A stretch of DNA of 64,000 nt from an uncultured bacterium (GTDB taxonomy: Bacteria; Muiribacteriota; Ozemobacteria; Ozemobacterales; Ozemobacteraceae). A program made the translations under genes and the position numbers. Below are positions 2,905 through 49,732 of the stretch, in pieces; within the stretch, counting starts at the first letter, position 1, and each line of letters begins with the position of its first letter. The stretch is from contig CAZADH010000001.1 of the NCBI GenBank assembly GCA_964483805.1, positions 28,724 to 92,723 on the forward strand. Direction: 5' to 3'. Below the pieces are notes generated by a model that was not told the DNA's origin, ran no database searches, and saw nothing but the letters and a program-made list of their open reading frames with translations.

Positions 2905-2907
2905 GGC

Positions 2908-10703: not shown

Positions 10704-10729
10704 GGGGACAGACCCTCAGGTCTGTCCCC
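10704..10729. promoter_or_regulatory. Perfect 11-bp inverted repeat (GGGGACAGACC ctca GGTCTGTCCCC) in a divergent intergenic region
   Basis: Located between the minus-strand kinase start and the plus-strand radical-SAM start. No T-tract follows on either strand, so it looks like an operator site rather than a terminator. Confidence 0.4.
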
Positions 10730-10776
10730 CATCCACAATTTGCCCAGAGAGGGCGTGCGTGGTAGGATACCGGACC

Positions 10777-11754: not shown

Positions 11755-11797
11755 GTATTTACTCCACTGTCGTGGGTGCGAACCCGAGGTCGAAACC

Positions 11798-13237: not shown

Positions 13238-13285
13238 CCGGGCGGCCATAACGGCCGAGGTGACAGAGACTGGTGTGTAAATACA

Positions 13286-14383: not shown

Positions 14384-14391
14384 TAACACGC

Positions 14392-15888: not shown

Positions 15889-15918
15889 TGAACAACCAAA
15901 GCCAGAGGGTCGTGATCG

Positions 15919-23506: not shown

Positions 23507-23826
23507 TTTGGGCGGTCGTCCACCCGGGCCGAATACATAGCATGGAACCGGGGTGCCTCGTCAAGTCCGGTTTCTGTGGCTTTCATGCGGTGGCTAAACA
23601 AGCGGATGTCTGCGTGCAACCAACCATAATACGATACGCCTGAGTTCCACAGTGTTGATGCTGGACAACGCCCTGGACCCTGGGATAGAATCATCATCGA
23701 GAAGTTTCGCGGGTGTCCGTTTCACATGCCGAGGGCGGCACGCAGCAGTTTTCGTGTGCGGCGCCACGATTCCTGAACCGGGCAACCAGACACAGGGTAA
23801 CGAGCCACATTTCACGGAGAGCGATC

Positions 23827-26800
23827 ATGCACCCCATCTACACCTCCCGCTGGGTGATCCTCACTGTCGTCTGTTGTATTGCTGCCGCCTTGATCGGCTG
23901 CGCCCTGCGCGGTCCTGAGTCGGCGGGCGTTGGCGTGTCGACCACGCCGGCACCTGCAGCGGTGGCGACGACAGGGGCGGCCGACGTGTTGCTCTCGTTT
24001 CAGGTCTCGACGACGGCGACGCCGACCACCCAGGCTGCTGTCCGGGCGGCCGCAGGGCCGGCGAGCGTGAGATTCCGCCTTCTGACGTTGAACATCGGCC
24101 AACCGGCACTACCGACGATTGCAACAGAACAGACTATTCTTGTTCCCCCGTCCGGGCGGGTTTCAGCGACATTTACCGCCGTTCCGGCACTGCCCACGAT
24201 CGCTCAGGTCGAGGGAATCAACGCCGTGATTGGCTCATACAGCACTTTCCATGGCGCACGCGACCTGCACGTCGGTGCCAATGTGATCACGGTTGCGCCG
24301 GTCGGATCGAACTGGCGGCACGACATCGCTGCCCAGGTTCTGGAAAACGCCATTCTTGATGCGACGGTGTTTGCGAAGCTGACCGCAACGGCTGCCGCGA
24401 CGGCCCTGAACGTTGCGGACGCGATCGATCGTAGCCAGCCGGCAGCCCCTCAGGATGCCGTGCGGGCTTTCGTGAGGGCGGTTGCCCCGCCACGGTGGGC
24501 GCTGTCGGCGGCAACGATTCTCTCCGCGCAGACCCGGGCCCTCGCGGCCGCCGGGCAACCGGCAAACGCAGTGACCATGTGGGTTCCAGGCGACACCTAT
24601 GTGACCGAGAGCTGTAGCCAGGAGAGTCTCGCGCGCATCTGCGGCTGGAGCACGCCCGCCGAACTCGACGTGGTTGCGTCGCTCCAGGCCGATGGAGCGG
24701 GCGAAGGAACGGCGGCCCGCTCATCGACTCGCGCCGTCACCCTGCCCGCAAGCATCGACTGGCGGAACCGAAACGGGACCGATTGGCTGGGCGGCGTGCG
24801 GAATCAGTTTCCCCGCCCCACGAGCGTGGCATTTGCGTGCTGTTCGACGCTCGAGGCCATGGCGCGAATCGACGCGAACCTTCCGGACTTCGACCTTTCG
24901 GAGTGGTTCCTCATGCGCTTCGGTCAGGCCAACGCGCCCGGTCTTCTCGATCAGGGTTGGAGCATCCAGCAAGCGTTGGAAGTACTGAAAACGAGCGGTA
25001 CGGTGTCAGAAAAGACCGTTCCCTATGGCTTGATCCCCTTCTACAATGCGCCGCCCGAGACTTCGCGCCGGTTTCGGGCCGCCAGTTATCAGCTGCTGCA
25101 GGGGACCGACGCCATCAAGCAGGCGCTTCAGGCGGGGCCCGTCATCACCGGCATGCGCGTATACGAGGATTTTGCCAGATACTCGAGTGGGATCTATTGG
25201 CACGCCGAGGGCAGACAGGTCGGGCACCAGGCGATTGTGCTCGTTGGCTACAACGATGCTGACGGGTGCTGGATTGCCAGGAACTCCTGGTCATCGAACT
25301 GGGGAGAGAACGGATACTTCCGCATCCGGTTTGGCGAACTGGGAGCCCGCGCCTATCAGGTCCGGTTTTCGTTCACAGATCCCGTTCCGGCGGCGCCCGC
25401 AGGTTTGACGGCGGTGCCAGGGGATCGCGAAGCAACGCTTTCCTGGTCGGCAACCTCTGGTGCGCGATCCTATACTCTCTACTATGGATCGACCCAGGGG
25501 ACCCGACGGGAAACGGGCGTGCGGGTTGGCGGAGTCACCAGTCCGCATCGATTGGGCGGTCTCCAGAATGGAACGACGTACTACTGTGTATTGACATGTG
25601 AGAACGAAACCGGGGAGTCAGCGTTGTCGCAAGAGATGAGCGTCACGCCTCGAGACCCGGCGGCGCTCATTCCTGCCAATGCTCATGCCGTTGCCGGCGA
25701 CCGCGCGGTCACCGTGACGTGGTCATCCGTGGCGCCGGCTTCGAGTTACCGCCTCTACTGGTCGACAACGCCAGGATCGGCCCGCTCCAGCGGTACCGTC
25801 ATCGATAATGCGAATTCTCCGTTCAGTCACACCGCGTTGGCCAATGGAACCACGTATTACTATCAGGTGACCGCGATCGTGGGCGGCGTCGAGTCGGGTC
25901 CCTCGCCCGAGTTCAGTGCGCGCCCCTGGCCCGGACTCCCGGGCGCCCCCACGGGCCTGCGTGCCGATGCCGGCAACGCACAGACGACCGTGTCGTGGAA
26001 CCCGGTCGCCGGCGCCGATCGCTACAATCTCTATTTCAGCAATGTTGCGACCGTCAACCGCACGAGCACGCTGATCGCTTCGGTGTCGAGTCCGTTCGTG
26101 CATCGGGACCGCCCCAATGGCACAACCGTGTATTACGTCGTCACCGCGGCAAACATGGCCGGGGAGTCGGCGGAATCGACGGCCGCTGCAGCCACTCCCG
26201 TTTTGCCGGCACCGACCGGAGTCAACGTGGTGCGCGGCTCGAGCGCGGTGACTGTGAACTGGTCACCGGTTCCTGGATCATCGGGCTACAACATTTATTA
26301 TAGCGAGTCGCCGCTGGCGTTGCGTACTGCAGGTGTTCCCGTCCGCAACGTGCAACCCGGAACGAGCATCACGGGTCTGGTCAACGGGCGCACTTACTTC
26401 TTTCAAGTCACGGCTCTCGACACCAGTGTCGAATCGGTGGGCTCGATGGTGGCCTCCGATCAGGCCATGCTGGCGCCGGCCAGCAACCTGCGGGTCAGTG
26501 GGACGCGTGGTCGCATCGGCGTCACCTGGGACGCCAACGTGGGCACCACCTACGGTATCAAACTGTACTACTCGATCGACAACGGCACGACCTGGCTTGC
26601 GACCACCCACGTCGAGGGCGCAACAACGGGTATTGCACCGGGAACGAATCAAAGCGTCAACTGGGTGTCGCACCAGGATTTCGCCGCGAACCAGGGGCAG
26701 GTGCGTGCCCGCGTGGTTCTCAACGACGGCGTCATGGATTCTCCCCCGATCGACTCGGGCGCCTTTACCATCGATAACCGGGTCATCGTCACTTCGGTTA

Positions 26801-29010
26801 CGTCGAACACCTCAGACGGCGTCTATGGTCCGGGTGCCGCGATTGATGTTCAGGTGACATTCTCGACGCCGGTTCTGGTCACCGGCACCCCACAATTACT
26901 TCTCGAAACCGGGGTTACCGATCGGCAGGCCAGTTACCTCTCGGGAAACAACAGCAATACGTTGTCGTTCCGATACGTCGTGCAGAACGGAGATGTCGCC
27001 AGTGACCTCGATTTCGCAAACTCGGCCGCACTGGCGCTCAACGGCGGCACGATTCGTGACGACGCCGGGAACAACGCGACACTGACGCTGCCCGGCCCCG
27101 GCGCCGCCGGTTCGCTCGGCGCCGCCAAAGCAATCGTGGTCGATGGAATCGCCCCGACCCTGGTGTCGGTGACCTCGACTTCGCCGGACGGCGACTATGG
27201 ATCGGGACGCGGCATCAATGTGACGTTGAACTTCTCGGAACCTGTCACGTTGGCCAACGGAGACCTCCGCCTCGACTTTGATACCGCCGGTTCGGCGACA
27301 GTCGCTCCGTTCGCCCCCGCCGCGGCGGCCAGTACGACATACGTTGTAAGTGCACCCGAGGCGAGCGCCGATCTCGACACCGTCGGACTGACACTGGTTG
27401 GCGGGGCAACCCTGCGCGATGCCGCTGGCAATGACGTCGCACTGGCCATTCCCGTCGGCCAGTCTCTGAAAGACAGTCGGGCATTGGTGGTCGATACGAT
27501 TCCGCCACAGATTCAGTCGATCAGACGCGAGATCCCGCTGGCGACTACAACCAATGCTCTCTCGGTTACGTGGCGGGTGACCTTCAGCAGGGCAATCGAT
27601 CCGACTACGGTCCAGCTCAGCGACTTCACCTTGGGCAATTCACCGAACACGATCGTCGACGAAGCTTTGAACGGGTTGAGCCAGGTCGATGCAACATCAT
27701 GGGATGTCACCGCAACAACGGGCACATCGGGAGACGGCACTCTCAGTCTCGGAAGCTATCCTGGCAATGGAGCCGACATCAGAGACGCCATCGGTAATCC
27801 GTACGCTGGGGCAATGGGCCCGCGTCAAAACTACACGATCGACAAGACGCCGCCGACGTTCGTGGCGATGGTTCCGTTTGACACCAACGCTGTCGATCTG
27901 AAGTTCAGCGAGAATATGGTTGGGTTGACAACCCCCGGCGGCATCAGCGTGTCGGGTGCAGGTATCAACTCCTTGTCCGCAACACCGGACACTATCGCGT
28001 CGGTTTCCATCGTAACCGGAATGTACCGACTCGAATGGGCAACCGGGGCAATGTTGGCGGACAGCACACTGACCGTGTCGACCTCGGGCCTGACCGACGT
28101 CGCGGGAAACAGTATTCAAGGGGTGACCAGCATTACCGACCAGACCCCCTTGATGTTCATTGACACGGTGGTAGTTGGCGACCCGGGCAATCAGTCAGAC
28201 CCGGTTGGTTACGGTGGAGTGGCAGTCGCATTCCGCATCGGGAAGTATGAGATTACCAATACACAATATTGCACATTCCTGAATGCTGTGGCACAGACGG
28301 ACACCTACGGTCTCTACTACACGCTGATGGCCGGAACGCCTGCCAGCAACCGAGGGGGGATCGATCGTTCGGGGTCATCAGGAAGTTACGTGTATTCGGT
28401 CGTCGCCAACATGGGAGACAAGCCTGTCAACTACGTGAGTTTCCTCGGTGCCGCAAGATTTGCCAACTGGATGCACAACGGTGGCCGCAATGGTGGCAGT
28501 ACAGAGACCGGGGCTTACACGATCACCGGAGGCGGTGACAATGCCGGCACGGTTGGGGGCCGCCAGAACGGGGCCCGGTTTTCGATCCCGAACGCGAGTG
28601 AGTGGCACAAGGCCGCACATTACAAGGGAGGAGGCACGAACAGCGGCTATTGGCAGTTCGCGACCCAGAGCGATGCCACGCCGACTGTTGCCCTTGCAAA
28701 CCCTGTAGGTAGTGTCAGTAACCCTGGAGTGAACGTCGCGAACTATGACATGGGAGCAGTTTGGAACGGACAGAACGCCAACTTCACGACGGTAGGGAGT
28801 TGTGGTGCATCATCCTGCAGCGCCTATGGCACTGCAGACCAGACCGGCAATGTGTCGGAGTGGACCGAGACCTATCCCTCCAGCCCGCCTTTTCGAGCCA
28901 CTCTTGGCGGCAATTCGCAAAGTCCGGGGTCTTGGCTTCGTTGGACAGCTCTCGCTGGCACGGACCAGACAGAGCGTTTTGCTCTCTACGGTTTTCGTGT
29001 TCGCCGGTAA
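23827..29010 (+). CDS. Giant multidomain lipoprotein, paralog 1 (about 1727 aa). Domain order: N-terminal domain, papain-like C1 peptidase, ~5 FN3 repeats, one BNR/Asp-box, bacterial Ig-like domains, C-terminal FGE-sulfatase/SUMF1-type domain.
   Basis: Lipobox LIGC; ribosome-binding site GGAGA 6 nt upstream. C1 motifs NQ...AFACCSTLEA and GHQAIVLVGY...NSWSSNWGENGYFRI. FN3-like ...LSWSAT..ARSYTLYY. Asp-box SIDNGTTW. C-terminus YRIGKYEITN...GFRVRR typical of the FGE-sulfatase fold. Confidence 0.8.
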   Translation: MHPIYTSRWVILTVVCCIAAALIGCALRGPESAGVGVSTTPAPAAVATTGAADVLLSFQVSTTATPTTQAAVRAAAGPASVRFRLLTLNIGQPALPTIATEQTILVPPSGRVSATFTAVPALPTIAQVEGINAVIGSYSTFHGARDLHVGANVITVAPVGSNWRHDIAAQVLENAILDATVFAKLTATAAATALNVADAIDRSQPAAPQDAVRAFVRAVAPPRWALSAATILSAQTRALAAAGQPANAVTMWVPGDTYVTESCSQESLARICGWSTPAELDVVASLQADGAGEGTAARSSTRAVTLPASIDWRNRNGTDWLGGVRNQFPRPTSVAFACCSTLEAMARIDANLPDFDLSEWFLMRFGQANAPGLLDQGWSIQQALEVLKTSGTVSEKTVPYGLIPFYNAPPETSRRFRAASYQLLQGTDAIKQALQAGPVITGMRVYEDFARYSSGIYWHAEGRQVGHQAIVLVGYNDADGCWIARNSWSSNWGENGYFRIRFGELGARAYQVRFSFTDPVPAAPAGLTAVPGDREATLSWSATSGARSYTLYYGSTQGTRRETGVRVGGVTSPHRLGGLQNGTTYYCVLTCENETGESALSQEMSVTPRDPAALIPANAHAVAGDRAVTVTWSSVAPASSYRLYWSTTPGSARSSGTVIDNANSPFSHTALANGTTYYYQVTAIVGGVESGPSPEFSARPWPGLPGAPTGLRADAGNAQTTVSWNPVAGADRYNLYFSNVATVNRTSTLIASVSSPFVHRDRPNGTTVYYVVTAANMAGESAESTAAAATPVLPAPTGVNVVRGSSAVTVNWSPVPGSSGYNIYYSESPLALRTAGVPVRNVQPGTSITGLVNGRTYFFQVTALDTSVESVGSMVASDQAMLAPASNLRVSGTRGRIGVTWDANVGTTYGIKLYYSIDNGTTWLATTHVEGATTGIAPGTNQSVNWVSHQDFAANQGQVRARVVLNDGVMDSPPIDSGAFTIDNRVIVTSVTSNTSDGVYGPGAAIDVQVTFSTPVLVTGTPQLLLETGVTDRQASYLSGNNSNTLSFRYVVQNGDVASDLDFANSAALALNGGTIRDDAGNNATLTLPGPGAAGSLGAAKAIVVDGIAPTLVSVTSTSPDGDYGSGRGINVTLNFSEPVTLANGDLRLDFDTAGSATVAPFAPAAAASTTYVVSAPEASADLDTVGLTLVGGATLRDAAGNDVALAIPVGQSLKDSRALVVDTIPPQIQSIRREIPLATTTNALSVTWRVTFSRAIDPTTVQLSDFTLGNSPNTIVDEALNGLSQVDATSWDVTATTGTSGDGTLSLGSYPGNGADIRDAIGNPYAGAMGPRQNYTIDKTPPTFVAMVPFDTNAVDLKFSENMVGLTTPGGISVSGAGINSLSATPDTIASVSIVTGMYRLEWATGAMLADSTLTVSTSGLTDVAGNSIQGVTSITDQTPLMFIDTVVVGDPGNQSDPVGYGGVAVAFRIGKYEITNTQYCTFLNAVAQTDTYGLYYTLMAGTPASNRGGIDRSGSSGSYVYSVVANMGDKPVNYVSFLGAARFANWMHNGGRNGGSTETGAYTITGGGDNAGTVGGRQNGARFSIPNASEWHKAAHYKGGGTNSGYWQFATQSDATPTVALANPVGSVSNPGVNVANYDMGAVWNGQNANFTTVGSCGASSCSAYGTADQTGNVSEWTETYPSSPPFRATLGGNSQSPGSWLRWTALAGTDQTERFALYGFRVRR

Positions 29011-29056
29011 TCGGTCCCGTTTCCCAAACCATCCCTATCGATCTCGGAGACTGCTA

Positions 29057-32000
29057 ATGTCTGGTTATCACCGCACGAACCTTGTGGGTGTAATCTGCGG
29101 CTTGTTTCTTGCATCAATGTTCGTTAGCCTCGGGTGCTCGATCGATGGTCGAGGTCGAGGAGGGATCGGAACCGACTTGACCACCACGCATTCGGTCGAC
29201 TCCCATTCCGCGAACGTGTCATTCGCTTTTCAAGTGACTCCCATCGCATCGGGACCGGCCATCCCGGTGCATCCCGCCGTATTCGCGCCCGGCGAGATGA
29301 CCGTGAGTTTTCGGCTGTTGACACTGAACATCGGCAATGTGTTGGCGCCGACCACGGCCACCGAGCAGACCGTGATCGTGCCGTCGAGTGGCCTCGTCAC
29401 CGCGCATTTCGGCGCCGTGCCAATGCGCAGCACCGTCGCCCAGGTCGAGCTGCGGGGTGCCTCGATCGCCTCGTTCTCGCGCTTTCACGGCGCACGCGAC
29501 CTCGGCCCCGGCAGCAATGTCATCACCGTGGCGCCGGTCGGTTCAGGATGGTCGAACGATCTGGCGGCCCATGCCCTCGAGACCGCGGCCCTGTCGCCAG
29601 TTCTGTTCGCGCGGTTGCCGGCATCCGCTGCTGCAGTCGCACTGCAAGTGGCCCTGCAACAGGACCGGTCGCGCGCGAACCTGCAGCAGGAGATGGTGCA
29701 AGCCTTTTCACAGGTTTTGAATCCCCCTCGATGGAGCCTGACCGGTGAGGCCATTCGGAGCGCACAGATTCAGGCTCTTGCTGCCCGAGGACAGATCGCC
29801 AATGACGAAACGACATGGACCGCCGGTGACACGTTCGTGACCCGCATTGCCGGTCAGAACGAGTTGGGCATGTGGTGTAGCTGGAACACCCCCACGGAGT
29901 TTTCGGTCGCGGGAAACATCAAGAATTCGACGGCCGTTGATGCCGGTGTCCGTGCCAGCACCCTGCCGCGCGTGCTCGATTGGCGGAACAAGAACGGCCG
30001 CAACTGGTTGCCCCCAGTGCAGAATCAGTATCCCCACTCGACCGGAGTGGCCTTCGCCTGCTGCAGCGCTCTGGAGACCATGGCCCTGATCGAGGGGAAC
30101 CTGGAAGGCGTCGACCTTTCGGAGTGGCAACTCATTCACGAGGGCCAACCCAACGAGTCGCAACGTCTGACCGGCGGTTGGAGTTTTCGCCCGGCGTGTG
30201 ACCATTTGGCCCAGGTCGGAGTGGTCAGCGACGCTCTGCTGCCCTACCACACGATCCCGCACTTTTCGACACCTTCGCCCGGCGCCCGCGTCTATCGCGC
30301 GGCATCGTATGTTCTGGCGCAGGGTTCCGATGGCATCAAACAGGCTCTGCAAGAGGGACCGGTCCTGGCCGGCATCAGGGTGTTCGAGGACTTCATGCGC
30401 TATACCGGAGGCGTCTACTGGCACGCCGCGGGTCAGGAGGTCGGCTTTCAAAGCATCCTTCTGGTCGGGTATGACGACGACCGGGAGTGTTGGATCGGCC
30501 GCAACTCCTGGTCGATCGACTGGGGCGAGCTGGGCTATTGCCGCATCCGCTACAGTGAGGCGCAGATCGATCGCGGCTATCTCGTGCGCTTCGCATATCA
30601 GATCCCCGCTCCCGCTGCGCCGGCCTCAGTCGCGGTTTCGATCGGCGATCGGGGAGCTCTCATTTCATGGCCGGTCGTTGCCGGCGCCACCAACTACAAC
30701 CTCTACCATGACACGATTCCCGGTCGACCAATTTCGAGCGGGGTCCGCATTTCGAACGTGACGAGTCCATACCGGCTGACAGGATTGACCAATGACGCAA
30801 CGTATTACGTTGTAATTACGTCCGAAAACAGCACCGGAGAGTCTCCCGGCTCGCCCGCGCTGCACGTGACGCCGCGCCCGCCGAGTGTTCTGACCGTGGC
30901 CAGTGCCTCGGCTGTCGCCGGCGATGGAACGGCTACCGTGTCGTGGTCACCGATCCCTGGGGCTGCCAGCTATAACCTCTTCTGGGCCGCAACCCCTGGC
31001 CAGGTCAGGTCTAGCGGCGTGCGGATTGCCGGTGTCGCAAGCCCCTTCACACATACACCGCTGACCAACGGTAACACGTATTACTACCAGGTGACCGCCA
31101 TCGTTAACGGCATTGAGACCGCGCCATCATCTGAGATCAGCGCACGACCGTGGCCGCGCATTCCCGATGCCCCTGGAAACGTGGTGGCCACCGCAGGCAA
31201 TGGTCAGGTTTCCATCGCATGGCCGCCGGTCGCGGAAGCTACGAGTTACAACGTCTACTCCGGATCATCGGCCAATCTCACCCGCCTGAACGGAACGCGG
31301 GTTACAGGAGTTGCGACCCCGTTCATTCATTCGGGAGTTGCGAACGGGTCCCGCCTCTACTACCTGGTCACTGCCGAAAACGCCGCCGGTGAGTCTGTCG
31401 AATCGATAGTCGTTGCGGCGACACCACAGTTGCCTTCGCCAGCAGACGTCAGTCTGGTTCGTGGCTCGACCCAGGTCACTGTCAACTGGTCGGCCGTTCC
31501 CGGTGCACTCGCTTACAATCTTTACTACGGCGAAAGCGCAACGGCACTGCGCACCACGGGCACGATCGTACGCAACGTGCAATCGGGCCGAACCATCACC
31601 GGGCTCGTCAACGGACGTTCGTACTACTTTGTGGTTACGGCCATCGATCAGAACGTCGAGTCGGCTGATTCGGTCATCCAGTCCGATCAACCGATCCTCG
31701 CGCCGGCTACAAACCTTCGCGTGACCGGGAACCGTGGCCGGATCACCCTCACGTGGGATGCGGTCACGGGCATCAACTATGGCGCGAAAGTGTTCTATTC
31801 ACTCGATGGCGGCACATCCTGGAGTCCGACCACGCACCTCGAAGGCACGTTGTCGGGCATCACGCCAGGCTCCGATCGCTCGCTGACCTGGGTCTCGCAT
31901 CAGGATTTCACCGCGCTGCAGACCCAGACCCGGGTTCGCTTGGTCCTTAATGATGGGGCCGTCGATGCCAACCCCATAGACTCGTCCGCATGGTCTGTGG

Positions 32001-34261
32001 ACAATCGGATCTTCGTTGCGGGCGTTGATGCCGTGTCGCCGGACGGCGCGTATCCGCTCGGCAGCACGATCGACATCAAGGTCAGATTCAGCACCATCGT
32101 GCGGGTCACCGGCACTCCTCAGCTCACGCTTGAAACGGGAGCGATCGATCGGACTGCCGCGTTCGCCGGGGGAGACAACACCGATACCTTGCTGTTTCGT
32201 TACACGGTGCAGGCAGGGGACACGACTCCAGATCTCGATTACGCCGGCACCAACGCACTCAACCTCAACGGCGGCACCATCCGCGACGACGTCGGCAATG
32301 CAGCAGCGCTGGCTCTGGCCCCTGTGACGACGTCGGGGTCCCTTGGCAGTGCACGGGCGATCGCCATTGACGGTGTGGTGCCGACTGTCGTTGCCATCAC
32401 CTCGCCAAACAGTAATACAACATATGGATGTAGCCAGACGATCACGCTCAACGTCGCCTTCTCCGAACCCGTCACGCTGGCCGGCAACTCGCTCGGCATC
32501 ACGCTCGACACCGGAGCCGTCGTGACAGTTGCACCGTTTTCCAACGTGGCGGTAGCTACCGCGACGTACCAAATAGCGCCGGGTCAGACCAGCGCTGACC
32601 TCGACACGACCGTCTTGGCACTGACCAACGGCGCGACACTGCGCGATGCCGCCGGCAACAACTGCAGCCTCACGATCCCTGGGGGCGAGTCGCTGAAAGA
32701 ACACAGCAATCTCGCCATCGACGCGGTCTTGCCGGCCGTCGTGTCGATCGTGCGGCAGACGCCGACTGCCGCACGAACCAATGCCGCGACAGTCGTCTGG
32801 CGCGTTACGTTCAATCGCGCACTCGACCTGGCTTCTGTGCAGACGACGGACTTCTCGCTGATCGACACCAGTGGCAGCCTTGCGGGCGAGGCAATCACCG
32901 GCGTGACCCAGATCAACCCGTCGACCTACGATGTCACGGCATCGACCGGAACGTCGGGTGACGGCGATCTTCAACTCAGGGTCCAGGCCTCCGTCGCAAC
33001 GATCGACGACACGGTGGGCAATCACCTGAGCACCGACGGCCCTGTTGGCGAAGGCTTCCGAATCGACAAGAACCCGCCCGCTCTCGTGCGTGCCACGGGC
33101 CTGGATACCGGCCTCGTCGAGATCTGTTTCGATGAACCTGTTACAGCCGGAGCTGATGCCCCGGGTTGTTTCACGATTTCGGGCGCGGGTCAGAGCACCC
33201 TGGCGGCGAACCCGACGTCCGTGACGGTTGTCGGCACCACGACCTATCACTTGAAGTGGTCGGCAGGTTCAATGTTGGCGAGCAGCACGGTTAGCGTGTC
33301 GGTCGCCGCTGGCGTGACCGATCAGTTTGGTCACGTGACCACCGGGGCGATTCATGCCGGCGCACCCACCCCGCTGCTATTCATCGAAACGGTGGCCGTC
33401 GGTGATCCGGGAAACAACTATGATGGCCGGGTGATGGCTGACATGGTGACCTTCTGCGGAAACGTGGCCTACGCCTATCGAATTGGCAAGTTCGAAGTCA
33501 CCAACGAGCAATACTGCGTATTCTTGAATGCCGTCGCCAGGTCCGATTCCTACGGATTGTACTCGACGTCAATGGCCGGTATGCCTTCCGATAATCTTGG
33601 GGGCATCGACCGCTCTGGACCCATGGGTGCATACGTGTATACGACGGTTGCCAATATGGGCAATAAGCCGGTCAACTGGGTGAGCTTCTATGGCGCCAGT
33701 CGCTTTGTGAATTGGTTGCACAACGGCGCACAGATCGGTGGGTCGACGGAAACGGGCGCATACACGATCACCGGCGGGGGCGACAATGCCGGCACGATCG
33801 GTTCCCGCGAGAATGGTGCAAGATACGCATTGCCGACCGAGAACGAATGGTATAAGGCGGCCTTCTACAAGGGTGGCAGCACCAACGCCGGGTACTGGTT
33901 CAGCGCGATGCAGAGCGATGCAGTCGCCACCAAAGCCACGGCCAATGGCACCGGCGACATCTCGAACCCGGGTGCCAATGTTGCCAACTATGCGAACAAT
34001 GCGGTTTGGAACGGCCAGGCAGGTCTCACCACAGTGGGGTCGGCTGGTCCATTGTCTGCAAGCGCCTATGGAACATACGATCAGACCGGCAACGTCACCG
34101 AGTGGTGTGAAACAATGTTAGACGGGGCAAATCACTGCATTCGTGGGTGTAATTACTCCTGGTCATACTGGCCGAACGCTACATACATGAATCGGGGTCC
34201 CTCCGGTGACGACTATCAGTACCGCACTAATGGTCTTCGTATTTTCCGCGCAGCCCAGTGA
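29057..34261 (+). CDS. Giant multidomain lipoprotein, paralog 2 (about 1734 aa), same architecture
   Basis: Lipobox SLGC; ribosome-binding site GGAGA 6 nt upstream; collinear with paralog 1. The catalytic-His region reads GFQSILLVGY, so no His is present there. Confidence 0.8.
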   Translation: MSGYHRTNLVGVICGLFLASMFVSLGCSIDGRGRGGIGTDLTTTHSVDSHSANVSFAFQVTPIASGPAIPVHPAVFAPGEMTVSFRLLTLNIGNVLAPTTATEQTVIVPSSGLVTAHFGAVPMRSTVAQVELRGASIASFSRFHGARDLGPGSNVITVAPVGSGWSNDLAAHALETAALSPVLFARLPASAAAVALQVALQQDRSRANLQQEMVQAFSQVLNPPRWSLTGEAIRSAQIQALAARGQIANDETTWTAGDTFVTRIAGQNELGMWCSWNTPTEFSVAGNIKNSTAVDAGVRASTLPRVLDWRNKNGRNWLPPVQNQYPHSTGVAFACCSALETMALIEGNLEGVDLSEWQLIHEGQPNESQRLTGGWSFRPACDHLAQVGVVSDALLPYHTIPHFSTPSPGARVYRAASYVLAQGSDGIKQALQEGPVLAGIRVFEDFMRYTGGVYWHAAGQEVGFQSILLVGYDDDRECWIGRNSWSIDWGELGYCRIRYSEAQIDRGYLVRFAYQIPAPAAPASVAVSIGDRGALISWPVVAGATNYNLYHDTIPGRPISSGVRISNVTSPYRLTGLTNDATYYVVITSENSTGESPGSPALHVTPRPPSVLTVASASAVAGDGTATVSWSPIPGAASYNLFWAATPGQVRSSGVRIAGVASPFTHTPLTNGNTYYYQVTAIVNGIETAPSSEISARPWPRIPDAPGNVVATAGNGQVSIAWPPVAEATSYNVYSGSSANLTRLNGTRVTGVATPFIHSGVANGSRLYYLVTAENAAGESVESIVVAATPQLPSPADVSLVRGSTQVTVNWSAVPGALAYNLYYGESATALRTTGTIVRNVQSGRTITGLVNGRSYYFVVTAIDQNVESADSVIQSDQPILAPATNLRVTGNRGRITLTWDAVTGINYGAKVFYSLDGGTSWSPTTHLEGTLSGITPGSDRSLTWVSHQDFTALQTQTRVRLVLNDGAVDANPIDSSAWSVDNRIFVAGVDAVSPDGAYPLGSTIDIKVRFSTIVRVTGTPQLTLETGAIDRTAAFAGGDNTDTLLFRYTVQAGDTTPDLDYAGTNALNLNGGTIRDDVGNAAALALAPVTTSGSLGSARAIAIDGVVPTVVAITSPNSNTTYGCSQTITLNVAFSEPVTLAGNSLGITLDTGAVVTVAPFSNVAVATATYQIAPGQTSADLDTTVLALTNGATLRDAAGNNCSLTIPGGESLKEHSNLAIDAVLPAVVSIVRQTPTAARTNAATVVWRVTFNRALDLASVQTTDFSLIDTSGSLAGEAITGVTQINPSTYDVTASTGTSGDGDLQLRVQASVATIDDTVGNHLSTDGPVGEGFRIDKNPPALVRATGLDTGLVEICFDEPVTAGADAPGCFTISGAGQSTLAANPTSVTVVGTTTYHLKWSAGSMLASSTVSVSVAAGVTDQFGHVTTGAIHAGAPTPLLFIETVAVGDPGNNYDGRVMADMVTFCGNVAYAYRIGKFEVTNEQYCVFLNAVARSDSYGLYSTSMAGMPSDNLGGIDRSGPMGAYVYTTVANMGNKPVNWVSFYGASRFVNWLHNGAQIGGSTETGAYTITGGGDNAGTIGSRENGARYALPTENEWYKAAFYKGGSTNAGYWFSAMQSDAVATKATANGTGDISNPGANVANYANNAVWNGQAGLTTVGSAGPLSASAYGTYDQTGNVTEWCETMLDGANHCIRGCNYSWSYWPNATYMNRGPSGDDYQYRTNGLRIFRAAQ

Positions 34262-34323
34262 TTGTTTGTGAACGGGCGGCTTCTTCGGCCTCGAAAGAGT
34301 TCGGGGCGACAGGTGGTGCAAGC

Positions 34324-37300
34324 ATGAGACGTAAATACATCAGACACGTAGCGGCTGCATTCGGCATTCTCTTTGCCGCAGTGGTGGCTTTCGTTGGATG
34401 CTCGGTTAGCCCCGCGGACCGTTCGGGCGTCGGGCCGACCCACCTTGTCCAAGACCTTGCTGCGCCCCAGTCTCAGGTTGCCTTTTCTTTCCAGGTCGAC
34501 GCAACTGCGTCGGCTTCAGTTGCAGGCAGCGTGCGGGCCGCAGGCACATCCGGCATCGTCACTTTTCGGCTGCTGTCGCTCAACATTGGCAATCCGGCCA
34601 ACCCGACGACGGCCACCGAACAGACTGTGTTGATCCCACCGACGGGACTGGTTACTGCGAACTTCTTGGCGGTTCCTGCCAAGACGACGATCGCGCAGGT
34701 TGATATTGTAGGCTCAACGGTTGGATCGTATTCGAGTTTTCATGGGGCCGGAGATCTTCGTCCGGGCCTGAATGTCATCACCGTGGCCCCGTCCGGGTCC
34801 GGTTGGCGCAATGATCTGGCCGCACACATTCTCGAGACGGCCGTCGTGACACCGACCATATTCTCAAAGCTGCCGGCATCGGCAGCGGCAATGGCGTATG
34901 AGATGACCGGCAGCATCAATCGCTCGCTGCCAACTGCCCAGGAGGATGTGGTGCGGGCTTTCACCCGGTTGATCAACCCCCCACGCTGGTCGCTTACTGC
35001 CGAGGCTGTTCGCAGCGCGCAGGCGCAACTTCTTGGCGTGAGTGGGCAGTCGGTCAACGGCGACACCGCGTGGGCTCCTGGCGAGACATTCATCACCGAG
35101 ACGATCAGCCAGGACGAGGTGGCCGGAATGTGTGGCTGGTCCGCGCCGACCGAGTTCTCGGCAAATCTCGCGAGTCCGTCTCTGGAACGGCCCGCGGTGC
35201 GCGGGGCCGCACTGCCGCGCAGTCTCGACTGGCGCAACAAAGACGGTAAGAACTGGTTGACTCCGGTGCGGAATCAGTATCCCTACTCGACGTGTGTCGC
35301 CTTCGCGTGTTGCGGTGCCCTGGAGGCGATGATGAAGATCCAGGCCAATCTCGACGGTGTGGATCTGTCTGAGTGGGCGCTGTTTCGATCCGGCAACGTC
35401 GCCGATCTGGGGGCGCTGTCCAGAGGTTGGGAGTTTCGCGTGGCCTGCGAGCAACTGAGGGTCGGCGGTGTGGTCGGCGAGAGTTATGTGCCGTATCACC
35501 TGATTCCGCGTTTCACTCAACCCCCGACTGGCATTCGGCAATACAAAGCAGACAGCTACGTACTGGTTCAGAGTGTCGATGGCATCAAACAGGCGCTGCA
35601 AAACGGCCCGGTGGTCACGGGAATTCGGGTCTTCGAAGACCTCATGCGTTACACCGGGGGGGTCTATTGGCATGCCACCGGTCGCGAGGTCGGCTTTCAC
35701 GCTATTCTGTTGGTCGGCTACGACGATGACCGGCAGTGTTGGATCGCGAAGAATTCCTGGTCGAGCGGATGGGGCGAGCAGGGTTTTTTCCGGGTGCGCT
35801 ACACCGAGGTCCAGACTGACCGCGGCTATCAGTTGCGGTTTGCCTTCACCTCGCCGGTGCCGACTGCGCCAAGTGGCGTGACCGCAATGCCCGGCGATCG
35901 CGAGGTCGTGGTGTCCTGGGCAGCCGCGGGCGAGGCGACCAGCCACAATCTCTACTACGGCACCGTTTCCGGGGTCCGCCGCGGTACTGGCCTGCGGGTG
36001 CCCGGCGTCGTCAGTCCCCATCGTCTCACCGGGTTGCGCAACGGTACGACCTATTACTTTGTATTGACGTCTGAGAACTCGACCGGCGAGTCCGGCGAGT
36101 CGTCGGAGGTGTCGACAACCCCCCGCGACCCGGCGACGTTGGTGCCATCGGGAGTGACCACCACGCCTGCGGACGGCCAGGTTGCGGTGCAGTGGACGGC
36201 GGTGCCGCAGGCCTCGGGTTACCGCGTATACTGGTCCACGACCCAAGGTGCGGCGAGAACCGGTGGCCAACGATTCGAACCGACGAGCGGGCCGTTCACC
36301 CATACGGGGCTGATCAACGGCAGCACCTATTATTACCAGGTGACCGCCCTCGTCGATGGCGTCGAGACTGCAGCGTCAACTGAGGTCAGCAGTCGACCGT
36401 GGCCGCAGATCCCACTGGCACCCACGGGCGTCTCCGCGACACCCGGCAACGGACAGAACACGATCGTCTGGAACCCGGTCCCCGGTGCAACCTCGTATCG
36501 GCTCTATCACGGCGGGGGCAGCAATATCAATCGGACGGCAGGCACGCGGATCGACAACGCGTCCAGTCCGCACGTTCATACGGGCCTGCCCAACAGTACG
36601 ACAGTGTACTACGTGGTTACGGCGCTCAACTTGGCCGGCGAATCGATCGAGTCGGCGGCAGTTGCCGCCACACCGTTGCTTGCCGTGCCCGGCGATGTTG
36701 CCATCGTTCGCGGTTCCAGTCAGGTGCAGTTGACGTGGTCGGCTGTGCCTGGGGCGTCCACCTACTCGATCTACTATGGCGAGTCGCCGGGTTCTCTCCG
36801 GACGACAGGAACGCCGATCCACAGCGCCCAACCCGGGCAGGTAATCTCCGGGCTCGTCAATGGTCGGACGTATTACTTTACGGTCGTCGCTCGCGACCCG
36901 AACTCTGAATCGGCTGGCTCGTCCGTCATCTCCGACAACCCGGCGCTGGCGATGGCCACCAATCTGCGGGTCACGGGCACCCGGGGACGAATCGTCATGA
37001 CCTGGGACGCAGCAACCGGTGTCAACTACTCGATCAAGGTCTTCTTTTCACTTGACGGCGGCACGACGTGGACACAAACCACACGTCTCGAAGGGACCTC
37101 GTCCGGAATTACGCCAGGCGTCAATCGCTCGGTCACCTGGGTGTCACATCAGGACTTTGCCTCCCTGCAACCCAATGCCCGGGTCCGCCTGGTTCTCAAT
37201 GACGGCACCGGGGACACGGCCCCGGTTGATTCCGGCGTCTTGAACATCGACAACCGGGTCACCGTCGAATCACTCTCTGCCGTGGCTGCCGACGGGCTCT

Positions 37301-39483
37301 ACGGTGCAGGATCGACGATCGATGTCACTGTGCGATTCAGTACTGTCGTTCGCGTCAACGGCACGCCGCAATTGGTGCTTGAAACCGGGTCCCAGGACCG
37401 CAGTGCTACTTACCTGAGCGGCGACAATTCCAATACGCTCGTGTTACGGTACTCCGTGCAACCCGGTGACGTGTCCTCTGACCTCGACTACGCGGGAACG
37501 ACAGCCCTGTCATTGGCCGGCGGAACCATCCGCGACGACGTGGGTAATGATGCCAACCTGCTCCTTCCTTCCCCCGGTGCGGCCGGATCCCTTGGCGCTG
37601 CACGGGCCCTTGTCATCGATGGCGTGGCACCGACAATCCTCTCGCTGACCTCTACCACCAACAATGGTGTCTACATTGAAGGCCAGAGTGTGAACGTAAC
37701 CCTGTCGTTTTCGGAACCGGTCGCTCTGACCGGCGGGTCGATGACCGTCAATCTCGATAGCGGGGGCGCGTGTGAGATCCTGCCTTTCGGCCTGCGTTCG
37801 AGCACTGCGGCGAACTACACGGTCAGCGGTGGTCACGCGAGTTTGGATCTCGACACCCTTTCGGTGGGGCTGGCCGCTGGAGCCAGTCTGCGCGATGCAG
37901 CAGGAAATCAGGGTTTGCTTGGAATTCCAGCAAATCAATCGTTGAAAGATCATCGCGATCTCGTCATCGATGCCATCGCGCCGACAGTCACGAGCATTGT
38001 CCGCCAGAGTGGGGTAGGTTCATTCACCAACGCTGCCGCGGTCAACTGGCGCGTTACGTTCAGCGAGGCCATGGATCCAGCCACCGTGAACAGCAGCGAT
38101 TTCACGATTGTCGACGCAAGTGGCACGATCACTGGGGAGGTGGTCACCGGGGTGACGCAGGTCACCAGTATAGCGTGGGATGTTGCCGCATCGACCGGTT
38201 CATCCGGCGATGGCGATCTACGCCTCGATGTTCTCGGATCAACGGCTTCGCTCAACGATCTCGCGGGACATGCAATCACCTCAGACTATACCGGAGGCGC
38301 GATCTACAGTGTTGATCGCACTGCACCCACGATCACATCTGTCATGCCGTTCGACCGCGGTGCGGTCGACGTGGTATTCAGTGAGCCGATGGGACCGGCC
38401 GCAGCCAGCGTGACCAACTTCACCATCTCAGGTGCGGCCCAGAGCACGTTGGCCGCGAACCCCAGTCAGGTCGACCAGGTTTGCGGAGGTGTCTGCCGTT
38501 TGACCTGGGCGGCGGGCACCATGAACACCAACAGCAGTCTCAACATGTCGGTCACGAATCTCGCCGATCGAGCAGGTAACACACTCACTGGCACCACCGC
38601 ATTCACAGAAACAACCCCACTTCTGTTCATCGACACAGTCCCGGTCGGAGACGCGGGCAACGCGGCCGACAACACTGATTATGGCGCCCTGGGCGCAGTC
38701 GCATACCCGTATCGTATTGGCACCTACGAAGTCACCAATGAGCAATACACGGTGTTTCTCAATGCGGTTGCCCAGACTGATGACCTGCAGCTCTACGCCC
38801 CGGCGATGTCCACCACCACCCCTTCGAACCGCGGCGGGATCGACCGCAGTGGCTCTCCAGGCGCATACTCCTACGCCACCGGGGCAAACTGGGGCAGCAA
38901 ACCAGTCAACCATCTGACCTTTTTTGACGTCGTCCGTTTTGTCAACTGGCTCCACAATGGTGCTCGCGCGGGCGGGAATCTTGAAACCGGAGCGTACTCG
39001 ATTGAAGGATGGTCCGGACCTATTGGCGCAAGGCAACCAGGCGCACGCTTCGCCGTGCCAACTGAAGATGAGTGGTATAAGGCGGCCTACTACAAAGGCG
39101 GAGGGCTAGCGGCGGGTTACTGGACGTTCGCAACAAGGAGCGACACGGCCCCATTTGTCGCGACAACCGACGCTCAGGGGGTCATCTCCAATCCGGGTAC
39201 AAACATCGTGAACTACGACAATGGCGCCTCATGGAACGGACTCACGGGCAATCTATCGACGGTCGGTTCGGCAGGCCCATCGTCGACAAGCTATTATGGC
39301 ACCTACGATCAATCCGGTAACGTCACTGAATTCATCGAGGCCTGGTATATTGAGGGGTCGGCGGTGTATTGCCGGGGCGGTACCTATAGCCAGAACTGGT
39401 ATTATATAGGAAAAGAAGCGGCTCGCGCCCCGGCCGGCGCCTGGTACAACTACGGGTTTCGCATCTGCAGACCATCGCAGTGA
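34324..39483 (+). CDS. Giant multidomain lipoprotein, paralog 3 (about 1719 aa), same architecture
   Basis: Lipobox FVGCS; collinear with paralogs 1 and 2. The catalytic-His region reads GFHAILLVGY. Confidence 0.8.
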   Translation: MRRKYIRHVAAAFGILFAAVVAFVGCSVSPADRSGVGPTHLVQDLAAPQSQVAFSFQVDATASASVAGSVRAAGTSGIVTFRLLSLNIGNPANPTTATEQTVLIPPTGLVTANFLAVPAKTTIAQVDIVGSTVGSYSSFHGAGDLRPGLNVITVAPSGSGWRNDLAAHILETAVVTPTIFSKLPASAAAMAYEMTGSINRSLPTAQEDVVRAFTRLINPPRWSLTAEAVRSAQAQLLGVSGQSVNGDTAWAPGETFITETISQDEVAGMCGWSAPTEFSANLASPSLERPAVRGAALPRSLDWRNKDGKNWLTPVRNQYPYSTCVAFACCGALEAMMKIQANLDGVDLSEWALFRSGNVADLGALSRGWEFRVACEQLRVGGVVGESYVPYHLIPRFTQPPTGIRQYKADSYVLVQSVDGIKQALQNGPVVTGIRVFEDLMRYTGGVYWHATGREVGFHAILLVGYDDDRQCWIAKNSWSSGWGEQGFFRVRYTEVQTDRGYQLRFAFTSPVPTAPSGVTAMPGDREVVVSWAAAGEATSHNLYYGTVSGVRRGTGLRVPGVVSPHRLTGLRNGTTYYFVLTSENSTGESGESSEVSTTPRDPATLVPSGVTTTPADGQVAVQWTAVPQASGYRVYWSTTQGAARTGGQRFEPTSGPFTHTGLINGSTYYYQVTALVDGVETAASTEVSSRPWPQIPLAPTGVSATPGNGQNTIVWNPVPGATSYRLYHGGGSNINRTAGTRIDNASSPHVHTGLPNSTTVYYVVTALNLAGESIESAAVAATPLLAVPGDVAIVRGSSQVQLTWSAVPGASTYSIYYGESPGSLRTTGTPIHSAQPGQVISGLVNGRTYYFTVVARDPNSESAGSSVISDNPALAMATNLRVTGTRGRIVMTWDAATGVNYSIKVFFSLDGGTTWTQTTRLEGTSSGITPGVNRSVTWVSHQDFASLQPNARVRLVLNDGTGDTAPVDSGVLNIDNRVTVESLSAVAADGLYGAGSTIDVTVRFSTVVRVNGTPQLVLETGSQDRSATYLSGDNSNTLVLRYSVQPGDVSSDLDYAGTTALSLAGGTIRDDVGNDANLLLPSPGAAGSLGAARALVIDGVAPTILSLTSTTNNGVYIEGQSVNVTLSFSEPVALTGGSMTVNLDSGGACEILPFGLRSSTAANYTVSGGHASLDLDTLSVGLAAGASLRDAAGNQGLLGIPANQSLKDHRDLVIDAIAPTVTSIVRQSGVGSFTNAAAVNWRVTFSEAMDPATVNSSDFTIVDASGTITGEVVTGVTQVTSIAWDVAASTGSSGDGDLRLDVLGSTASLNDLAGHAITSDYTGGAIYSVDRTAPTITSVMPFDRGAVDVVFSEPMGPAAASVTNFTISGAAQSTLAANPSQVDQVCGGVCRLTWAAGTMNTNSSLNMSVTNLADRAGNTLTGTTAFTETTPLLFIDTVPVGDAGNAADNTDYGALGAVAYPYRIGTYEVTNEQYTVFLNAVAQTDDLQLYAPAMSTTTPSNRGGIDRSGSPGAYSYATGANWGSKPVNHLTFFDVVRFVNWLHNGARAGGNLETGAYSIEGWSGPIGARQPGARFAVPTEDEWYKAAYYKGGGLAAGYWTFATRSDTAPFVATTDAQGVISNPGTNIVNYDNGASWNGLTGNLSTVGSAGPSSTSYYGTYDQSGNVTEFIEAWYIEGSAVYCRGGTYSQNWYYIGKEAARAPAGAWYNYGFRICRPSQ

Positions 39484-48067: not shown

Positions 48068-48083
48068 TGCGAGGAGTATGCCA

Positions 48084-49628: not shown

Positions 49629-49680
49629 GTGGGTGACGTGCCCGTTATACTTACGTTGCACATCAATCGTATGTAAATCG

Positions 49681-49709
49681 ACCGGGGTCGCCGCAATGGC
49701 GACCCCGGT
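49681..49709. terminator. Perfect 12-bp stem hairpin (ACCGGGGTCGCC gcaat GGCGACCCCGGT) between convergent genes
   Basis: Perfect inverted repeat. On the minus strand it is followed by a T-containing stretch (TCGATTTACAT). Confidence 0.45.
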
Positions 49710-49732
49710 CTGGTATTGGCCGGTTGTTGCGG

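Follow-up and report, generated by a model that had tools for sequence, protein, structure and literature searches.

Three tandem giant lipoprotein paralogs joining a papain-like domain to an FGE-type lectin-fold domain, two of them predicted pseudoproteases

Three consecutive genes in the window (the whole 64-kb stretch of DNA that was analysed) encode giant paralogous lipoproteins that carry a papain-like (C1) domain and a C-terminal C-type-lectin domain of the FGE subtype in one chain. Judged by the catalytic residues, one copy is a candidate protease and the other two are predicted pseudoproteases. Our best reading, with function inferred and a probability of about 0.5, is that these are surface capture-and-cleave proteins, one active copy accompanied by two binding-only copies.

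The three open reading frames lie on the + strand, are collinear over their full length and share 52-53% pairwise identity, in agreement with the three tandem paralogs of ~1720-1735 residues described in the first-pass annotation. The intergenic gaps are 46 and 62 nt long and contain no terminator-like site, and copies 1-3 probably form one operon. Membership of the downstream lipoprotein gene in this transcription unit is uncertain. The features of the locus are as follows.

20468..23506, - strand: divergently transcribed lipoprotein gene (signal ends MQLGC), N-domain first, then ~90-aa Ig-like repeats (Big_7/Big_13)
23662..23691, + strand: promoter-like site upstream of copy 1, a consensus match only (10/12 positions)
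23827..29010, + strand: copy 1 gene, 1727 aa, predicted pseudoprotease
23899, + strand: lipobox Cys25 of copy 1
29057..34261, + strand: copy 2 gene, 1734 aa, predicted pseudoprotease
29135, + strand: lipobox Cys27 of copy 2
34324..39483, + strand: copy 3 gene, 1719 aa, keeps the catalytic residues
34399, + strand: lipobox Cys26 of copy 3
39617..41341, + strand: downstream lipoprotein gene (signal ends LTGC) with a CarboxypepD_reg domain, without the N-domain

Every copy begins with a signal peptide composed of a positive n-region and a hydrophobic h-region and ending in Gly-Cys (LIGC, SLGC and FVGC in copies 1, 2 and 3), a pair that is invariant in 6/6 aligned homologs. The lipobox previously called in each copy was thus confirmed, and all three proteins are predicted bacterial lipoproteins on the basis of signal peptide and lipobox cysteine. 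The residue at position -3 is Leu in copy 1 and an atypical Ser or Phe in copies 2 and 3, respectively, so that the latter two match the strict [LVI][ASTVI][GAS]C pattern only partially. The locus as a whole is a cluster of lipoproteins, with an N-terminal module common to copies 1-3 and the divergently transcribed neighbor at 20468..23506. A radical SAM/SPASM gene at 10693-11754 was considered as a link to an anaerobic sulfatase maturase and rejected, as it best fits a tungsten-cofactor maturase model, far below the cut-off, and is not an anSME. No T9SS genes were seen in the 64-kb window. Its purA-like gene scores below the equivalog cut-offs and has a closest non-self match of only 40% identity.

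The mature proteins share one domain order: an unnamed N-domain, Peptidase_C1, four FN3 repeats, an FN3-like domain with one Asp-box, Big_5 Ig repeats and the C-terminal FGE-type C-type-lectin domain, with a stalk of about nine beta-sandwich domains separating the papain-fold head from the lectin-fold tip. The coordinates are given below for copy 3, with those of the other copies in brackets.

34504..35058, + strand: N-domain (about residues 61-245), without a Pfam family (~23980-24666 in copy 1; ~29186-29905 in copy 2)
35212..35838, + strand: Peptidase_C1 (24724-25365 in copy 1; 29948-30589 in copy 2)
35839..36948, + strand: four FN3 repeats (25366-26472 in copy 1; about 30590-31699 in copy 2)
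36949..37263, + strand: FN3-like domain holding the single Asp-box
37048-37071, + strand: Asp-box SLDGGTTW (motif at 26572-26595 in copy 1; 31799-31822 in copy 2)
37264..38625, + strand: Ig-like (Big_5) repeats, about four units (26788-28155 in copy 1; 32015-33382 in copy 2)
38626..39480, + strand: FGE-subtype C-type-lectin domain (28156-29007 in copy 1; 33383-34258 in copy 2)
39346..39480, + strand: hypervariable C-terminal tail of the lectin-fold domain, presumed ligand-binding site (~28858-29007 in copy 1; ~34109-34258 in copy 2)

Pfam supports the C1, FN3, Ig and FGE-type domains that had been proposed from the letters: Peptidase_C1 matched copies 1, 2 and 3 at E 4e-24, 2e-23 and 5e-28 (PF00112, 84-99 bits vs a cut-off of 20.7), FGE-sulfatase at E 4e-14, 1e-16 and 6e-13, fn3 was found in all three, and Big_5 passed its cut-off once the Ig region was scanned alone. 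The proposed BNR Asp-box holds as a motif only. Each protein has exactly one SxDxGxxW, but the BNR HMM (E 0.14, 12.6 bits vs a cut-off of 27) falls short, and a sialidase-type beta-propeller of BNR/Asp-box repeats was rejected on these grounds. None of the three proteins matched an NCBIfam family, except for a negligible hit to GldK. The N-domain is a module also present in other lipoproteins. The combination had been called unusual, and its rarity holds: this is a very rare, uncharacterized architecture that is assembled from known parts and involves no new principle.

The catalytic residues were placed by aligning each copy to cathepsin C (1jqp), which phmmer recovered from the PDB at E 4e-26 for copy 3, 7e-21 for copy 1 and 2e-19 for copy 2. 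The equivalents of Gln19 (oxyanion hole) and Asn175 are conserved in all three copies. Copy 3 has the complete catalytic set of Gln318, Cys324 (TGT, 35293-35295), His459 (CAC, 35698-35700) and Asn477. At the nucleophile position copy 1 has Ser333 (AGC, 24823-24825) and copy 2 has Gly330 (GGA, 30044-30046), and the His position is occupied by Gln468 (CAG, 25228-25230) and Gln465 (CAA, 30449-30451), respectively. In copy 1 a His lies one residue upstream of this position, with no indel between the flanking anchors, and this His467 is not predicted to pair with Ser333. The conserved cysteines of the 'AFACC' motif sit downstream of the nucleophile position. The Q-C-H-N set is present in 146/155 aligned C1 domain matches (nearest representatives plus the three window copies). 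With nucleophile and general base both gone, copies 1 and 2 are predicted to be pseudoproteases and count as non-peptidase homologues of family C1, and copy 3 is the predicted catalytically competent copy and a family C1 member by its residues. The first-pass annotation had quoted the His-region strings exactly (GHQAIVLVGY, GFQSILLVGY and GFHAILLVGY) and was right that the catalytic His differs among the copies. It had also described the Cys and Asn regions as conserved throughout, which is true of the Asn, but not of the nucleophile, a Cys in copy 3 only. Its suggestion of at least one pseudoprotease was therefore correct, but it did not go far enough and relied on a misassigned residue.

The C-terminal domain belongs to the FGE-sulfatase family by fold and Pfam match, and the motif YRIGKYE[IV]TN...GFR[VI] previously assigned to it fits approximately, with FRIGKYEITN in copy 1 and GLRI in place of the final GFRI in copy 2. 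The catalytic, Cu-binding Cys-x4-Cys pair that follows GGS[WY] in FGE is absent from the three tails and is not conserved in the family. Copy 1 has no tail cysteine, copy 2 has a C-x3-C overlapping RGG, and copy 3 has a single Cys before RGG and one near the C-terminal end. The earlier FGE/SUMF1-type label thus stands as a family match, but given the missing Cys pair it should not be taken to denote an enzyme. Homologs of this domain number more than 6800; the best 120 are mostly proteins of 250-480 aa, ~50-57% identical over 85-98% of the domain length, and among these 120, Pfam assigns PEP-CTERM to 24, and dockerin or TSP3 occur in single proteins. The named sources of the small homologs are Planctomycetes and Verrucomicrobia. 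We found nothing in the literature on PEP-CTERM FGE-like proteins. An AF2 model of the FGE domain built from a 4-sequence alignment was discarded (pLDDT 31.6).

The invariant core residues of the lectin fold are the same in copies 1-3 and in the small homologs, and the tail is variable in both. Over the last ~45-50 residues the pairwise identity of the copies falls to 0.17, compared with about 0.6 in the domain core, and pN reaches 0.46-0.61. No other part of the mature paralogs has diverged nearly as much, and the tail also has the highest entropy of any segment across the wider lectin-fold family. In FGE-subtype DGR variable proteins the binding site is formed by the C-terminal ~40-45 residues (PMC6328139). 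The earlier idea of diversifying surface-protein paralogs used in binding gains indirect support from this location of the strongest divergence, part of which could reflect relaxed constraint rather than new specificities.

The family comprises only about seven sequence clusters, and the comparisons drawn from it are correspondingly thin. A scan of GTDB representative genomes, which do not include the genome of the window, returned only C1-domain-level matches (<=42% identity), and a metagenome scan with the N-domain found solely the already known P0002-type contig. All five relatives with N-domain and C1 (P0002, P0004, P0005, P0271 and P0272) keep the Cys and His. Every bootstrap replicate (100%) pairs copy 3 with P0002, within a clade of the window copies and P0002 supported at 99.7%. 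The C1 domain of copy 3 is 75% identical to that of P0002; the corresponding values are 56% for copy 1 and 59% for copy 2. By these sequence relationships copy 3 is the ortholog of P0002, and copies 1 and 2 are products of older duplications. Because synonymous sites are saturated (pS ~0.70), dN/dS is unusable and only pN and pS can be compared; pN is ~0.32 in every domain including C1, with values of 0.23-0.32 for the dead C1 domains. Copies 1 and 2 are, judging from these proportions, still under purifying selection. Fusions of C1 and FGE domains occur in the window copies, P0002, P0004 and P0272 and involve two different FGE subtypes. Furthermore, at Riflebacteria locus L085 a C1 protein and an FGE-domain lipoprotein are encoded next to each other, with 22 nt between the genes, in support of a functional link between the two domains. 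Literature searches found no paper joining FGE-sulfatase with Peptidase_C1 in such a sense, the matches dealing with metacaspases, and nothing on assembly GCA_022711295.

Under the capture-and-cleave reading, copies 1-3 would be lipid-anchored and extracytoplasmic, with surface exposure rather than a periplasmic location being assumed. The lectin-fold tip would capture a ligand outside the cell (protein, peptide or glycoconjugate) for cleavage by copy 3, probably to acquire nutrients or remodel the surface. The other two copies would bind without cleaving, as receptors, adhesins or substrate traps that differ in ligand specificity, and may present substrate to the active copy 3 or modulate it. 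The protease is membrane-proximal in these proteins and the binding domain distal, an arrangement that is not obviously optimal for capture and cleavage. A bolder and rather doubtful extension is that the pairing of a protease with an FGE-subtype lectin domain, fused or adjacent, represents an unrecognized class of bacterial surface 'targeted protease' systems. Triplication, tail divergence and two catalytic deaths might then have produced a small receptor or decoy repertoire, a paralog-based alternative to retroelement diversification, possibly directed against other cells or phages rather than serving only in feeding.

Other explanations assign a different role to the dead copies or to the stalk and tip. 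Copies 1 and 2 might be sensors or allosteric partners that control the activation of copy 3, by analogy with Clostridioides difficile, where the pseudoproteases CspA and CspC control the active protease CspB (PMC7200643). One active and two dead paralogs encoded together, dead C1 domains that are still conserved and the Csp precedent would all fit. We nevertheless consider this regulatory role unlikely, as there is no sign of a zymogen or prodomain (copy 3 residues 27-295 gave no Pfam match to an I29-type propeptide at E up to 1, nor was any other Pfam match seen upstream of C1), no paralog was seen next to P0002 at its locus, and divergence peaks in the lectin tail and not in C1. The segment before C1 that is common to many bacterial homologs comprises only ~50 aa. 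It is similarly improbable that all three proteins are mainly adhesins or envelope components, with the copy 3 protease used only for self-processing or shedding. Long FN3/Ig stalks with a lectin-fold tip, the surrounding lipoproteins with a common N-terminal module, and the PEP-CTERM or dockerin anchors on tip-domain homologs are what such a role would predict, yet no part of copy 3 is closer to its ortholog than C1, and all other family members have retained the catalytic set; both observations argue for selected catalysis. The decay of copies 1 and 2 into functionless pseudogenes would account for the loss of both catalytic residues and for their somewhat greater branch lengths relative to copy 3 and P0002. 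It appears highly implausible given two uninterrupted reading frames of 5.2 kb, the excess of pS over pN in every domain, and the retention of the signal peptide, the lipobox Cys and all invariant residues of the lectin fold.

The C-terminal domain could also be an enzyme, an FGE-like oxidase or EgtB-like sulfoxide synthase that modifies the substrate, with C1 as an accessory. In EgtB/OvoA-type sulfoxide synthases the N-terminal part is a DinB-like domain. None was found in any copy; in all of them Ig repeats stand before the FGE-like domain. The domain is equally similar to the non-catalytic TvpA, pFGE and PorK, and the segment that holds the active site in FGE is the hypervariable one in copies 1-3. 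Together with the absent Cys pair, these points make an enzymatic role very unlikely. A structural match to TvpA raised the further idea that the tails are DGR variable regions and the three genes DGR targets. No sequence resembling a template repeat of any tail was found in the 64 kb, no YxDD reverse-transcriptase motif occurs in window ORFs of at least 150 aa, no annotated ORF has an RVT Pfam match, and the three tails lack the common nucleotide backbone expected of variable regions copied from one template. With neither a VR/TR pair nor a reverse transcriptase, a DGR was rejected for the 64-kb window and has only a minimal chance of being the explanation.

To our knowledge, bacterial papain-family proteins have barely been studied, and FGE-fold domains outside true FGE/EgtB enzymes are mostly unexplained. 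The capture-and-cleave reading offers a hypothesis that joins a lectin-fold targeting domain to a cysteine protease. This coupling is seen repeatedly as fusions, which involve two FGE subtypes, and in one case between neighboring genes. With an active copy next to two dead ones, the locus may also serve as a natural experiment on the roles of bacterial pseudoproteases. The unnamed N-terminal domain common to several neighboring lipoproteins is new. In addition, the annotation 'Formylglycine-generating enzyme' should not be transferred to the C-terminal domain of these copies or to its thousands of small homologs.

Among known systems, the best solved-structure matches of the protease domain are cathepsin C/DPP1 (1jqp, 3pdf) and cathepsin L-like enzymes of the papain family (MEROPS C1A). 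The fold is the same, and in copy 3 Gln, Cys, His and Asn are in register and an NSW..WGE motif is present. The differences are that C1 is here one part of a 1700-aa bacterial lipoprotein, that neither an I29 propeptide nor a DPP1 exclusion domain was detected, and that Cys and His are missing from copies 1 and 2. The small proteins annotated as 'SUMF1/EgtB/PvdO family' or 'formylglycine-generating enzyme', none of which is characterized, contain the C-terminal domain that is here fused to a giant protease and stalk lipoprotein. The T9SS ring lipoprotein PorK/GldK, listed with pFGE/SUMF2 among the nearest known systems, is distant (TIGR03525, 17 bits vs a cut-off of 350). DGR variable proteins of the FGE-subtype C-type-lectin fold (Treponema denticola TvpA, 2y3c; TaqVP; Mtd) depend on a reverse transcriptase and template repeat that the window lacks, and the variation here has built up between paralogs that diverged long ago (saturated dS) and is not retroelement-driven. 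DGRs base their programmable binding on the very scaffold that would do the recognition in the 'targeted protease' pairing suggested above. Eukaryotic expansions of C1 pseudoproteases, the Plasmodium SERA tandem array with its Ser-type members and the SMIPP-Cs of scabies mites, consist of single-domain parasite proteins. They are likewise arrays of papain-fold paralogs, some with Cys replaced by Ser or without catalytic residues, but copy 1 also lacks the His and is thus not comparable to the Ser-type SERAs, which keep it. Although the Csp system of C. difficile comprises subtilisin-fold spore germination proteins, with no homology or common context, it shares with this locus one active protease encoded with two dead paralogs, and its dead paralogs retain function (PMC7200643).

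Three genes in tandem encode the giant lipoprotein paralogs, referred to here as copies 1, 2 and 3, that the first-pass annotation had described as proteins of about 1720-1735 residues. Gene starts were placed at the first ATG after the upstream in-frame stretch, and a public protein collection contains the identical three proteins with agreeing starts, encoded on an NCBI contig of 121,952 bp.

23827-29010, forward strand, copy 1, 1727 aa
29057-34261, forward strand, copy 2, 1734 aa
34324-39483, forward strand, copy 3, 1719 aa

The copies are collinear over their full length, and their pairwise identity, computed as that annotation had proposed, is 52-53%. No terminator-like sites were found within the intergenic gaps of 46 and 62 nt, one promoter-like site lies 5' of copy 1, and a single operon is plausible from this arrangement. 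Pfam searches supported the proposed domain order in all copies, with matches to Peptidase_C1 (E 4e-24, 2e-23 and 5e-28 in copies 1, 2 and 3), repeated fn3, Big_5 Ig-like repeats (which exceed the cut-off if the Ig region is scanned separately) and FGE-sulfatase (E 4e-14, 1e-16 and 6e-13). The lipobox was likewise borne out: each signal peptide ends in Gly-Cys, invariant among homologs, while its remainder is just ~25-40% identical. Exactly one SxDxGxxW Asp-box was present in each copy; since the BNR model was not significant on these proteins (E 0.14), it is a motif within an FN3-like domain and not part of a sialidase-type propeller.

The C1 domain of each copy was aligned to rat cathepsin C (1jqp), in which the nucleophile region reads NQESCGSC, with the final Cys catalytic.

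Catalytic positions of the C1 domains (papain numbering)
Copy 1: Cys25 (nucleophile) is Ser333, in NQFPRPTS; His159 (general base) is Gln468
Copy 2: Cys25 is Gly330, in NQYPHSTG; His159 is Gln465
Copy 3: Cys25 is Cys324, in NQYPYSTC; His159 is His459

The catalytic His thus varies among the copies and the Asn is conserved, as had been noted, with Gln19 and Asn175 equivalents in all three; the catalytic Cys, previously thought to be common to all, is confined to copy 3, and the cysteines of the conserved 'AFACC' are not the nucleophile. The His of copy 1 precedes the catalytic position by one residue, with no indel between the anchors YWHA and LVGY; judged by beta-strand geometry, the side chain of this His is expected to face away from the nucleophile site. 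Because both the nucleophile (Ser or Gly) and the general base (Gln) are substituted, copies 1 and 2 classify as predicted pseudoproteases by the standard criterion, with only copy 3 predicted to be competent. The earlier suggestion of at least one pseudoprotease was correct in kind and understated in number.

Of 155 aligned C1 matches, which came from the three copies together with the nearest 150 cluster representatives, 146 have Q-C-H-N; the other rows are copies 1 and 2, five scattered exceptions and the two halves of one split domain. Catalytic residues have been lost independently in the bacterial C1 homologs P0274, P0277, P0287, P0290 and P0337, and P0290 has a Ser/Gln pair identical to that of copy 1. 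Pseudo-C1 domains are recurrent among C1 homologs of this clade, at a few percent.

The C1 domain follows an N-terminal module without a Pfam match, here called the N-domain. Only a handful of clusters with this arrangement came up when 5.8 billion proteins were searched by word index and 1.84 billion representatives exhaustively with phmmer:

P0002, 68% identical to copy 3 across the first 520 residues
P0271, with a frameshift after ~620 aa
P0272 and P0004, about 1300 aa each
P0005, encoded by a Candidatus Riflebacteria MAG
P0273, fragmentary

Cys and His are kept in every such relative whose sequence covers C1. In neighbour-joining trees, copy 3 and P0002 were sisters in 100% of bootstrap replicates, and the window copies with P0002 formed a clade (99.7%) that leaves P0271 outside. 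It follows that the duplications preceded the copy 3/P0002 split and that the ancestor was catalytically active. No paralog flanks the P0002-type gene upstream or downstream on its contigs. Copy 3 and P0002 are most alike in C1 (75% identity), compared with 56% and 59% identity to P0002 for the C1 of copies 1 and 2. The C-terminal halves (26788-29007, 32015-34258 and 37264-39480) gave topologies that disagree with those of the N-terminal halves: in the Asp-box and Ig region P0002 joins copy 1 (85%), and in the FGE domain it joins P0004, separate from the window copies (96.5%), which hints at gene conversion among the copies or domain exchange.

The array is flanked by two more lipoprotein genes, and a lipoprotein locus with the homolog P0005 occurs in a Riflebacteria MAG.

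20468-23506, reverse strand, divergent lipoprotein gene upstream of the array, 1012 aa
39617-41341, forward strand, downstream lipoprotein gene, 574 aa, with LTGC signal, Thr/Ser-rich linker and CarboxypepD_reg domain
1-7650 of JADFXM010000128 (Riflebacteria MAG GCA_015233565.1), three-gene lipoprotein locus L085

The upstream protein shares the N-domain (at about 22835-23227; tblastn E 2e-14, hhalign 98% and E 1e-13, hmmsearch E 2e-24), followed by ~90-aa Ig-like repeats (Big_7/Big_13, with weak Ca_tandemer and OmpL47). The downstream protein lacks it, and its gene may belong to the operon of copy 3. In L085, the gene preceding that of P0005 encodes a lipoprotein with the N-domain fused to Omp28 (hhalign 99.1%). 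Because non-protease lipoproteins also carry it, the N-domain is best interpreted as a module of lipoproteins in general rather than as the prodomain of a protease. P0005 has N-domain, C1 and FN3 without an FGE domain, and the gene 22 nt 3' of it encodes a separate lipoprotein of 511 aa in which dockerin-like repeats are combined with a canonical FGE-sulfatase domain. The canonical short FGE subtype is fused in P0004 and P0272, and the PEP-CTERM-family subtype in the window copies and P0002. This recurrence, by fusion with two subtypes and by gene adjacency, argues for functional coupling of C1 and the FGE fold.

The C-terminal domain unexpectedly matched >6800 proteins at about 50-57% identity, which is also how closely the paralogs match one another. 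The best 120 of these are mostly 250-480 aa, the few with a named organism come from Planctomycetes and Verrucomicrobia, and 24 have a PEP-CTERM Pfam call, with dockerin or TSP3 modules in single ones. The domain is widespread as an extracellular module. Its last ~45-50 residues (the tail) are the most divergent segment of the mature paralogs (pairwise identity 0.17 vs ~0.6 for the domain core; pN 0.46-0.61 vs 0.24-0.30) and the highest-entropy segment in the wider family. The active site of FGE lies in the equivalent segment. In FGE-subtype DGR variable proteins this segment is the variable, ligand-binding region (PMC6328139), and other domains are invariably N-terminal to the FGE-type domain (PMC7159879), as in the window copies.

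We propose, with a probability of about 0.5, that the copies are tethered to the cell envelope and would capture ligands through the distal lectin-fold domain, that copy 3 would cleave a protein substrate, and that copies 1 and 2 would be binding-only derivatives of differing specificities, widening the ligand range or presenting or holding substrate. The C-terminal domain itself is a lectin fold other than FGE, with the hypervariable tail as its presumed binding segment. Against this proposal, the protease is oddly sited at the membrane-proximal end. It is unlikely that the dead copies instead have a Csp-like regulatory function, and just as unlikely that all three are mainly adhesive or structural, with proteolysis for self-processing only.

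The DinB-like domain is a feature of EgtB-type enzymes. Pfam found none in the copies, and the paired cysteines of aerobic FGE (Cys-x4-Cys) are missing from all three tails. The sequences therefore do not support enzymatic activity of the FGE or EgtB kind, and an FGE-like enzyme is very improbable. A DGR at the array was considered as a corollary of the variable tail and rejected: the 64-kb window contains no template repeat, YxDD motif or RVT domain, leaving hardly any chance that the genes are DGR targets. The chance that copies 1 and 2 are decaying pseudogenes is equally slight. Of the dN/dS comparison suggested earlier, pN (~0.32 overall, 0.23-0.32 in the dead C1 domains) and pS (~0.70, with synonymous sites saturated) were obtained, and pN this low against saturated pS shows purifying selection on all copies, so that copies 1 and 2 are being maintained.

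Several other genes were observed in the window:

10693-11754, forward strand, radical SAM/SPASM protein
41381-42868, reverse strand, divergent adenylosuccinate-synthetase-like (purA-like) gene
53664-56162, forward strand, 832-aa fusion of CoA-disulfide reductase with rhodanese, TusA and DsrE2-like domains
56380-57417, forward strand, YhgA-like (Transposase_31) gene, the sole mobile-element-type gene seen
58449-60308, reverse strand, protein with Memo-like and PGA_cap domains
60220-62700, reverse strand, large DUF3160 protein (E 4e-113), adjoining the preceding gene
5646-7346, 11759-17103 and 47901-49937, all reverse strand, stretches whose longest ORFs have no Pfam matches

The radical SAM protein, considered as an anaerobic sulfatase maturase tied to the FGE-like domains, showed no such link; among NCBIfam models it fits a tungsten-cofactor maturase best, at a score far under cut-off. 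The purA-like gene (186 bits vs an equivalog cut-off of 402; best non-self homolog at 40% identity only) either is a paralog whose function differs or reflects very poor sampling of its lineage. The fusion looks like a sulfur-trafficking enzyme. Third-position GC in the longest ORFs of the three stretches without Pfam matches is 0.57-0.63, compared with 0.75-0.83 in supported genes, and the true genes may lie in other frames or on the opposite strand.

The recognisable domains of the copies are all known, and no finding at this locus challenges current understanding. What is new is the architecture itself, for which the first-pass annotation rightly knew of no characterised example (~7 clusters among billions of proteins, none characterised), the repeated coupling of a C1 protease with an FGE-fold domain, and an N-terminal lipoprotein module that lacks a name. 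The locus offers a clean test case for bacterial pseudoproteases and non-enzymatic FGE-fold domains. Dead paralogs that accompany an active enzyme, as here, have a precedent in CspBAC of C. difficile (PMC7200643), and others in Plasmodium SERA and mite SMIPP-C.
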